NCBI RefSeq assembly: GCF_001272835.1
Contig: NZ_CP010546.1
Span: 692,809 to 724,808 of the forward strand
Source of the DNA: Mycoplasmoides pneumoniae FH
Lineage (GTDB): Bacteria; Bacillota_I; Bacilli_A; Mycoplasmatales; Mycoplasmoidaceae
Reading direction: 5' to 3'
DNA: 32,000 nucleotides
Shown here in pieces: positions 18,001-21,000 of this stretch. The position numbers were made by a program. Position 1 is the stretch's first letter, and every line of letters starts with the position of its first letter.

Positions 18001-21000
18001 TTGTCTTGGATCACTACCCCATTAAGCCAGGACTCGTTTTGTTGGTTGGCAAAGAGTTGACTACCAGTGCTTTCATTGTAAGCACGGTAATTGTTAGTTA
18101 GGACGGGAATCCTGTCTAACTTATTAATATAGCTTTGATCTTTTGTAAATCACTGGCTCTTTTGGTTATGATCCGAATTGTTGTGATCAAAGCTCTTTTG
18201 TTGCGCTAATAAAAGGTTAGCGGTATTGTTTCCTTTATTAATCACTGGATAACCTAACAAGTAGTAGTTTTGTTCGATGAACTGGTTGAGTGGTTTGGCA
18301 CTAAACAGTTCCAAAGTATCACCTAAAGCCTTGTAAGCCTTAATTGCTGGTTTGACAAAGTCATGAAGAATTTGCTGATCGCGTTGATTTTTAAGGTTTA
18401 GGTTAACTTCAATCACGGCAAAGTCAGCATAGTTGCCAGGAAGACTTGTTGTGATGTTGTTATAACTGTAACTATTCATATCAACAAAGTCAGTAGCAGT
18501 GTAAGCCGTTTTGGGAATATTGGAGGCCTGAATCGAAACCAAGGCTTTATCAGTTTGATTGGCTGATTGATTTTCTTCTTTAGAAATGTACTGCTTTAAC
18601 TGCTCACCTTCTAAGTATTTACCCAAAGAAAAGAATTCAGTTTTAGTATTCTCAGTAAAATCTTGCTTGTTCTGATCTTTTTTGTAGGGTTCGTAATCCT
18701 GATCATTCCTTAAAGCATCAGCTACGTGTAAGTTAGTGGCTAAATAAACGGTGAATTGATCATCCTTTAGAAGGGAGTTATCAATGTTGCTTGTAATGCT
18801 AGGGACAAAACTGCCATCAATACCTAATGCCTTTTCATCACCCTTCCAGTCAAATAACCAGCCGGTGCCATAGATATCGTTAGACTTATTGGTAAAGTTC
18901 AACGAAAAAGTTAGATCATAGTTATGCTTAAAAACATCACTTTCACTAGGTACCTTATTGGTTTGGAAGTGAAAGCCACGGTTAACAGGCACTACCTCTG
19001 CGGTTGGTTTAGGTACATCAGTTGTAGGTGTGGTAGGTGTAATGGGACCACTTTCTTCAATGTTATTGGGTTCAAAGTTTGGCTGGGTTGCAGCACAGGC
19101 ACTAAGAATAGTGCTGGTACCCAGCAGTGTTAAGAAACCCAATAACTTGAATTGCAGTCTCATAGACTAACTATTTTAATACAGATAGCCAAGGAGCTAA
19201 ACCATTATAGCCCGGTTTATCTAGTAAATAAAGAGGCACTTAAACCATCAATGATTAATTGAATCAAGGATCTTTTTCGATATAACGGAACTGTTCATCA
19301 GTACTATTTTGAATTTCACTATACAGGTGGGTTTTATTTCGTTTAGCAAACAAAGCATAATAGTCTCTATTATTACTATCACCAAAGTATAAGGTCGTAA
19401 CTGTATTTAACTAAACTTACCCCATTAACATCTTTAGGAACAGGCAATAGCTGGGCATAGCCAACACTATCTGATTCAGTAGCAGCTGAATAAATACTGC
19501 TAATCTTTTTGTCTTGGTTAAACACTAAACTGCCACTCGATCCACCTAGTAAATCAGTATCAGTTAGAGCTAAGCCATAGCCGTGGTTTTTATATTCATA
19601 TCCATGATAATCAGTGATAGCACTTTTAAAAGTACCAAAATCAACAATTCCTTGATTTAAGGAATATTCATTAAGGAAGCCGTTACTGTAATATGTGTGC
19701 ACTTTACTACCAGCAACTGGTTGACCTTGCCTTAAGTTTTTGGTAAGTGTTGGCATAGAACCATAAAAGTCATCATGGTTAAAACGTTGTTCTGTTTTGG
19801 TTCACTCAAACAACTTAGCATCATCAGTCCATAAAGTTGGATAACCCAAAAGGTAATGGGTATCGTTTTGGTATTGGGTTAATGGTTAACTGGCGAATAT
19901 ACCAGTACTGTCACCCAATGCTATATAAGCTTTCATCGCCGGATCAATAAAGTGATCTTTAATCTGCTTATCTTGCTTATTACTTAAATCTAGATTGATT
20001 CCAATACAGCAAAGTCAGCGGCAGGTAATCTATATTCCCCCAAATCATTAATAAAAAGTGTTGCCGTGTAAGCAGTTTTTGGCAATTTTGAAGTTTCAAT
20101 CCGCACTAAGCTAGGTTCATGCATAGCATCAGGAACTATTTGCTTTATTTCATTACCATCAACGAACTTACCTAAAGTGAAAGATTCAGTTGGATCGTCA
20201 AAGTAATCAAATTGATTGAAAAACTCATAATCATTCACATTTCTTAAATTATCAGCTACATGTAAGTTAGTAGCTATGTAAGCAGTGAATTTATTGGGCT
20301 GATTATTATCCTTTCAATCAATGAGCCAACCAGTACCGTAAGTAGCTGTATATGGATCTTGAAACTGGAGCGTAAAACTTAGATCATAAAAGGGACGAAA
20401 GGGATCATCCTTTTTTGGAATGAAGTTAGTATTGAACTTTAAGTCAGAGGTGTATTCACCTAAAGCAGGGTCTGGTTTTAATGCTTGCTTGTCTTCTGGT
20501 TGAACTGCACTAACACTTTTGTTGTTTACAGGCACAGCCGGTGCACAAGCAGTAAAAACTCCTTGAACTAGTAAAAGTGTTAAAAAGACAAAACCTTTTA
20601 ACCTATATCTAAGAAAAAGCGGGGTTGCTTTAGTAATAGGCAAATTAAAAAAACTTAAACAAATACGAAAAATTAATGAAAAAGCTAACTAATGGAGCAA
20701 TGCTCGATTATATAAGCTTGCTTTAGTGTGGGTTGGTTAAGTTGGTCGATTTAACACAAAGCTAATGAAAGTATGCTTAGCTTTTTACCGGTGTTTAACT
20801 TAATTGAATTGTTTGTCTACCACATAACGGTACTGTTCATCAGTACTTTTAAGGATTTCACTGTACAAGTGAGTTTGCTGTTTTTTAGCAAACATCGCAT
20901 AGTAACGCTTAGTGTTGCTATCACCAAAGATGAGGTCATAGCTTTGTGAAACTACACTTATACCGTTGACATCCCTAGGAGTTCGTAATAACTGAGCATA

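Follow-up and report, generated by a model that had tools for sequence, protein, structure and literature searches.

How could two neighbouring genes that are about 26% diverged come to share 93 nucleotides (nt) without a single difference? This question is raised by a gene array in Mycoplasmoides pneumoniae FH. We analyzed a stretch of 32,000 nt from this genome (contig NZ_CP010546.1, positions 692,809 to 724,808; hereafter the window), in which 14 serine-protease-like lipoprotein paralogs with the DUF31 domain (PF01732), labelled A to N, form a tandem array at 2003..23949. All positions below are those of the window, and the array and the features described within it are on the minus strand. 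The 93-nt block is found in copy L, a pseudogene, and in its neighbour, copy M. We conclude that it very probably records a single short event (about 90-100 nt) of ectopic gene conversion between these adjacent paralogs, and is not a mark of any programmed variation system.

The 93-nt block and its borders

The L copy of the block (19455..19547) lies within the MPN589 fragment. It is an exact and maximal match to the M copy (20996..21088), which covers residues 383-414 of the 478-codon frame of MPN591. A mismatch abuts each end, and extension by one base is not possible. The identity base for base that the first-pass annotation had described was reproduced, with mismatches on both sides. The block is the longest exact repeat of the whole window. 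No third copy was found in the complete genome, which contains two copies in total, and additional copies elsewhere in the genome are excluded.

In frame, the block consists of 30 whole codons (GGSSGS...SVGY). The GSSGS serine motif lies in the block, as had been reported. However, the 34 residues given for the encoded peptide overrun the block by four (AQLL). These four residues are the same in L and M, yet the Ala codon differs.

It had also been stated that the two copies differ often elsewhere, and this is correct. The DNA identity of L and M outside the block is 72-74% (0.737 for the pair), and the longest exact seed shared there is 25 nt. The borders are sharp, with 7-13 matches per 15 nt within 15 nt of either edge. 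The distance between the misaligned L and M blocks is 1,541 nt. L and M are the closest relatives of each other (0.74 DNA identity, compared with at most 0.57 for all other pairs that include L or M). Among the other paralogs, the best match to the block is in copy N (77% over 71 nt), and no other copy carries the block.

State of copies L and M

Copy L (19276..20643) was identified as a DUF31 pseudogene by reading of the open reading frames (ORFs), by Pfam and by motifs. It comprises MPN590 (217 aa) and MPN589 (157 aa), as judged from the ORF sizes in Table 1 of PMC7176901. Three lesions were confirmed, in agreement with the earlier description of L as a broken copy: a frameshift, with the first fragment ending at TAG 19990-19992; a TAA in frame at 19886-19888; and a +1 shift, after which the frame closes at TAG 19376-19378. 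All three are common to the two lineages of the species, type 1 and type 2. Over 19276-22236 without the block, L and M have a ratio of nonsynonymous to synonymous divergence (dN/dS) of about 0.16. This indicates that L has spent most of its history under purifying selection and that its lesions are young relative to the duplication.

Copy M (20800..22236), which is MPN591 (353 aa) by the same Table 1, had been called open. It is indeed open over 478 codons (22236-20803), with the caveat that the frame opens with CTG (22236-22234). This CTG immediately follows a TAA (22234-22239), and there is no ATG, GTG or TTG ahead of the signal peptide. M carries a complete lipoprotein signal peptide despite the lack of a canonical start codon. 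Public annotations mostly give 353 aa from GTG 21861, and some give 478 aa.

Both copies belong to the DUF31 family of S1-like, MIP-like serine protease lipoproteins of mycoplasmas. The PF01732 profile matched M with 138.4 bits and the L fragments with 102.1 and 51.4 bits (cut-off, 27). The His, Asp and Ser motifs (ATNLHV, ADFAVLE and GGSSGS) and a lipobox Cys (..FTAC) were seen in both L and M.

Tests of copying against chance and selection

At a pair identity of 0.737, the expected number of exact runs of 93 nt is 1.8e-10. Outside the block, 64% of the L and M residues are identical, and only 58% of these share the codon, whereas 30 of 30 codons are identical inside. The Nei-Gojobori estimates outside the block were dS = 1.37 and dN = 0.225, with a proportion of differing synonymous sites (pS) of 0.63. 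In contrast, none of the 19 synonymous sites of the block differs, where about 12 differences would be expected (P about 6e-9). Selection or codon bias as the cause is excluded by these synonymous-site and codon tests.

A GENECONV-type permutation was performed with the alignment of the 14 copies, a check that had been suggested in the first-pass annotation. In the family, 80 of the 93 block sites are polymorphic, and L equals M at all 80. The longest concordant run in 5000 site permutations was 41.

We also looked for a nucleotide-level element in the block. No Rfam match was obtained (the best hit, to an unrelated snoRNA, had E = 0.33), and no unusual RNA fold was detected on either strand (z-scores, -0.65 and -1.15). 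Such an element is therefore excluded as the cause. As for the assembly, complete genomes assembled independently for the two lineages contain both block copies. In a set of DNA reads, the 93-mer stands as a separate unitig whose depth (14.7) is twice that of the flanks (7.7). With selection on the protein, an element in the nucleotide sequence and an assembly error each excluded, gene conversion is well supported.

Age of the tract and variation among strains

Two records without the type-2-specific segment of the array described below (L013 and L014) were compared with the window, and 14 differing positions were found over 15 kb. Those in the L/M region are at 19236, 19693, 19942, 20064, 21227 (L014 only) and 21880, and none is in either block. 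M of type 1 differs from that of type 2 by one or two single-nucleotide polymorphisms (SNPs). Both blocks are intact in the type 1 records L013 and L014 and in the type 2 records. Because both blocks are unchanged in both lineages, the sequences indicate that the tract is older than the split of type 1 and type 2 and was fixed in both. Zero differences in 93 nt give a 95% bound on block divergence of about 3%. Measured against the divergence of type 1 from type 2 (0.1-0.2%), this bound is no more than 16-32 times as large; against the L/M dS, it amounts to about 2%. The conversion described as recent in the first-pass annotation is thus strongly supported by the codon, synonymous-site, run-length and permutation tests, but it is recent only relative to the duplication.

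Variation within the species was then considered for M and L. The 353-aa M protein is unchanged in 616 contigs. Four rare substitutions of M (D106Y, S337N, R352H and A359S) are all outside the block, and none of them equals the L residue. The C-terminal fragment of L has two alleles (Y53D, from the type-specific SNP at 19693), which occur in 154 and 463 contigs. Among the type-specific or strain SNPs in L and M, one of five equals the paralog base, as chance predicts. An interpretation of the strain SNPs as micro-conversions was rejected on these two comparisons. In GCA_009810135.1, a single G>A change is present at 19471, in the L block only. The two blocks are 92/93 identical in this strain, and they were not re-homogenised. 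No L/M mosaics were found among the contigs and assemblies compared. Mosaicism among strains, which had been raised as a check, is therefore not seen for the L/M pair, although at the level of the whole array strains do differ, through unequal recombination. Since its fixation, the block sequence has behaved as ordinary DNA.

A model of the exchange

The conversion would begin with RecA-dependent strand invasion between the misaligned L and M copies. A short patch would then be copied without crossover, in either direction (L to M or M to L). The divergence of about 26% would be tolerated in a genome without MutS-type mismatch repair. As the sequences show, the patch overwrote all earlier differences, including synonymous ones, and it became fixed ahead of the type 1 / type 2 split. 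RecA was found (314.6 bits), whereas no match to MutS domain V was detected in the complete 817-kb genome. With RecA in place and MutS missing, the pairing of homeologous sequences faces no barrier from mismatch repair. For M. pneumoniae, the lack of a working RecU resolvase and weak RuvAB activity are reported (PMC3364216). A missing functional RecU would favour non-crossover patch repair.

Several points weigh against this explanation. The same limits on RecU and RuvAB imply inefficient recombination (PMC3364216), though non-crossover outcomes could be favoured by them. With just 25 nt as the longest exact seed outside the block, at 74% identity, initiation is hard to explain. A single event is indistinguishable from a few rare ones that hit the same site. 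The direction and mechanism of transfer are inferred, not observed; a search for outgroup orthologs of L or M that could polarise the transfer gave short, weak DNA matches only, in 6 of 20 related genomes, and the tract is already present in both lineages.

Alternative explanations

The identity might have arisen with no transfer at all, from purifying selection on the active-site region, from codon bias, or from an artefact of assembly or polishing. The block does include the catalytic GSSGS motif, a conserved feature of the family. However, most block residues are non-conserved, the synonymous sites are identical as well, and the 80 polymorphic sites vary among the other paralogs. The block is carried by independent complete assemblies of both lineages and forms a unitig at double depth, which argues against an artefact. 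This explanation is almost certainly wrong. The first-pass annotation had proposed cassette-type variation, in which the broken L would be a silent donor (or sink) that reshuffles its expressed neighbour M, as RepMP does for the P1 adhesin. Here a pseudogene adjoins an open paralog and has a converted patch in common with it, and gene-conversion-like exchange at RepMP/p1 does occur in M. pneumoniae (PMC6347185). Against this, the M protein is the same throughout the contigs, its rare substitutions are unlike the L residues, and the L/M SNPs equal the paralog base at chance level. Furthermore, the islands of identity in the array lie at differing parts of the gene: at the Ser motif in L/M, after the Asp motif in E/F and at the C-terminus in A/B. 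Since they sit in different parts in each pair, a site-specific or programmed mechanism is argued against. The E/F island joins two pseudogenes. Because six copies are full-length with ATG starts, there is no single expression site. With no L/M mosaics, scattered islands and many copies that are full-length genes, donor/recipient variation of this type is unsupported, and we consider it very improbable.

The island could also be a substrate for crossover at the present day, so that M-L fusions would arise by deletion of 1,541 nt, or the blocks would be homogenised again and again within populations. Six Logan contigs (L023-L028), independent of one another, run from M-upstream sequence through the block into L-downstream sequence and encode a 314-aa protein (P0015), and strains differ elsewhere in the array by unequal recombination at islands of 9 and 21 nt. 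These fusion contigs, which come from the different runs ERR973514, ERR973516, ERR973525, ERR957638, ERR4013271 and SRR32270841, skip 19548-20995. However, the fusion is confined to k=31 short-read contigs and is absent from the NCBI assemblies, and both L and M are present in all seven gene contexts shown (48 long contigs). The assembly graphs of three DNA control runs break exactly at the block; what remains is a 1,508-nt loop contig (19518-21025) and a 93-nt unitig at double depth. Likewise, in an RNA control run, one contig jumps across a 47-nt island from copy B into the flank of copy A. The ends of all six fusion contigs fall at non-repeat positions, which is what uneven coverage would yield. 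Since control runs break at or jump the islands, such joins arise as assembly artefacts under uneven coverage, and the M-to-L fusion contigs are probably graph artefacts of this kind. The P0015 fusion was not accepted as proof of live recombination. The 1-nt difference retained between the blocks of GCA_009810135.1 also speaks against repeated homogenisation. A present-day hot spot is thus unlikely. The wider proposal is equally doubtful, namely that the island is a live crossover site, that the fusions are real 1,541-nt deletions that recur in natural populations, and that the array is a recombination-driven, on/off and copy-number-variable repertoire of surface proteases. If it were true, the C-terminus of MPN591 would be replaced by a frameshifted pseudogene tail to give the 314-aa product, and three further variants of the array described below (the duplication at D/E, the indel at J/F and the poly(G) switch of copy D) would be part of the same variable repertoire. 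A single old gene-conversion event between L and M remains the explanation that we favour.

Other recombination in the array

A second island of 89 nt was found as an exact repeat in copy E (9420..9508) and in the adjacent copy F (10853..10941). E and F are adjacent pseudogene copies that are 80% identical overall. This island spans 80 concordant polymorphic sites, compared with at most 49 in the permutations. The F partner lies within the type-2-specific segment, and type 1 strains therefore have only the E copy of the island.

A third island, an exact repeat of 47 nt, links copy A (2070..2116) with copy B (4505..4551). The A/B pair is otherwise 56% identical, and the expected number of 47-nt runs is 1e-9. 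This island breaks k=31 assemblies, with a 2,448-nt loop contig, and it is the one across which the contig of the RNA run jumps. A further significant island of 28 nt was found between M and N.

Comparison of strains delimited a type-2-specific segment of 5,882 nt (10816..16697), which contains the 3' part of J, copies I, H and G, and the 5' part of F, and is absent from type 1. At its J/F junction, there is a 9-nt overlap (TCTTAAAAA). The segment corresponds exactly to CP010546.1 703624-709505, the DUF31 block that Diaz et al. (2017, PMC5391922) describe as 'type 2-specific', and to what Xiao et al. (2015, PMC4537597) call the '6-kb lipoprotein insertion'.

The strain comparison also revealed a 21-nt D/E island (8241..8261, equal to 9687-9707), at which a crossover has produced an extra unit of 1,465 nt. 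This D/E hybrid unit is present in two assemblies, L017 and L022 (CP017339.1 and BAAGEQ010000001.1). Possibly it is what PMC11302288 describes as a 'gene multi-copy phenomenon'. Taken together, the array recombines: there are several conversion patches, and the copy number has changed by unequal recombination at short islands.

Copies D and E show additional features. A poly(G)8 tract (8480-8487) interrupts copy D. One extra base is present at this tract in two runs (X6 and X7), and some assemblies (L016, L020 and L021) call an intact D of 493 aa. The tract looks like a homopolymer on/off switch. In copy E, the codon of the catalytic His (9882-9884) is CAA (Gln) in this type 2 genome. In all four runs without the type-2 segment (the join was shown in three), G is present at 9882 and the codon is CAC (His). 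Since these runs read a His codon, the substitution in the active site of E is lineage-specific.

The array and its genes

The window, part of a single-contig genome of 817,207 bp, has a G+C content of 38%, and TGA is read as Trp. It matches the M. pneumoniae records CP017337.1 and CP017327.1 with 100% identity across the overlap. The array is flanked by glyA (756-1976) on one side and by rpiB and the F1Fo atp operon (from about 24930) on the other. It corresponds to 'lipoprotein multigene family 1' (PMC2515320). The ORF sizes of the other two copies that could be named agree with Table 1 of PMC7176901: K is MPN588 (531 aa) and N is MPN592 (521 aa). Full-length ORFs with an ATG start and a complete DUF31 domain were found for copies C, G, I, J, K and N. 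When purified, MPN592 was inactive on IgG, IgA and IgM (PMC7176901). When solved structures were searched with the M sequence, no match was obtained.

Meaning and comparison with known systems

In a minimal pathogen that lacks mismatch repair, neighbouring genes at this level of divergence have exchanged short patches, and a pseudogene was involved. The tract informs the evolution of the largest lipoprotein/protease family of the species. It is also a caution for read mapping and short-read assembly in MPN577-MPN592, where k=31 graphs come apart or are wrongly joined at islands of 47-93 nt, and it is relevant for judging 'recombination' calls in population genomics.

Ectopic gene conversion is well known in bacterial multigene families, such as tufA/tufB, the rRNA operons and tandem surface-protein families. 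In these, as in the L/M tract, short tracts with sharp borders and homogenised synonymous sites are formed; the process depends on RecA and prefers nearby copies. In the classic cases, however, the paralogs are near-identical over their full length, whereas L and M have a single patch of about 93 nt against a dS of about 1.4, and one partner is a pseudogene.

The vlhA genes of Mycoplasma synoviae are also a lipoprotein family with broken copies in a tandem array beside an expressed one. Conversion of vlhA is frequent, its donors are the pseudogenes and its recipient is one expressed gene, and it gives rise to chimeras within a culture. These frequent, one-way and chimera-generating features are not seen for L and M.

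Within M. pneumoniae itself, RepMP2/3, RepMP4 and RepMP5 exchange sequences with the p1/orf6 adhesin operon (as MgPar does in M. genitalium). As with L and M, patches are copied in a gene-conversion-like manner between diverged repeats that include non-coding or truncated copies (PMC6347185; PMC3364216). The organism and the recombination machinery are the same. However, the RepMP donors are dispersed, promoter-less and feed one expression site, whereas L and M are adjacent members of a tandem array. In addition, RepMP/p1 exchange has produced variants among circulating strains (p1 types 2a-2j and others), while the L/M patch is fixed species-wide, with no strain mosaics found.

Structural variation of the array between the lineages is already known. 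The type 2-specific 6-kb insertion (PMC4537597, PMC5391922) lies in the same array as L and M and shows that paralogs recombine there. It is a difference in copy number, by crossover or deletion at the 9-nt overlap, that separates the lineages, whereas the L/M patch is of the non-crossover kind and is present in both. Compared with these systems, the L/M tract is an old, fixed and ordinary event of a well-known kind, and neither a new mechanism nor an active immune-evasion system.
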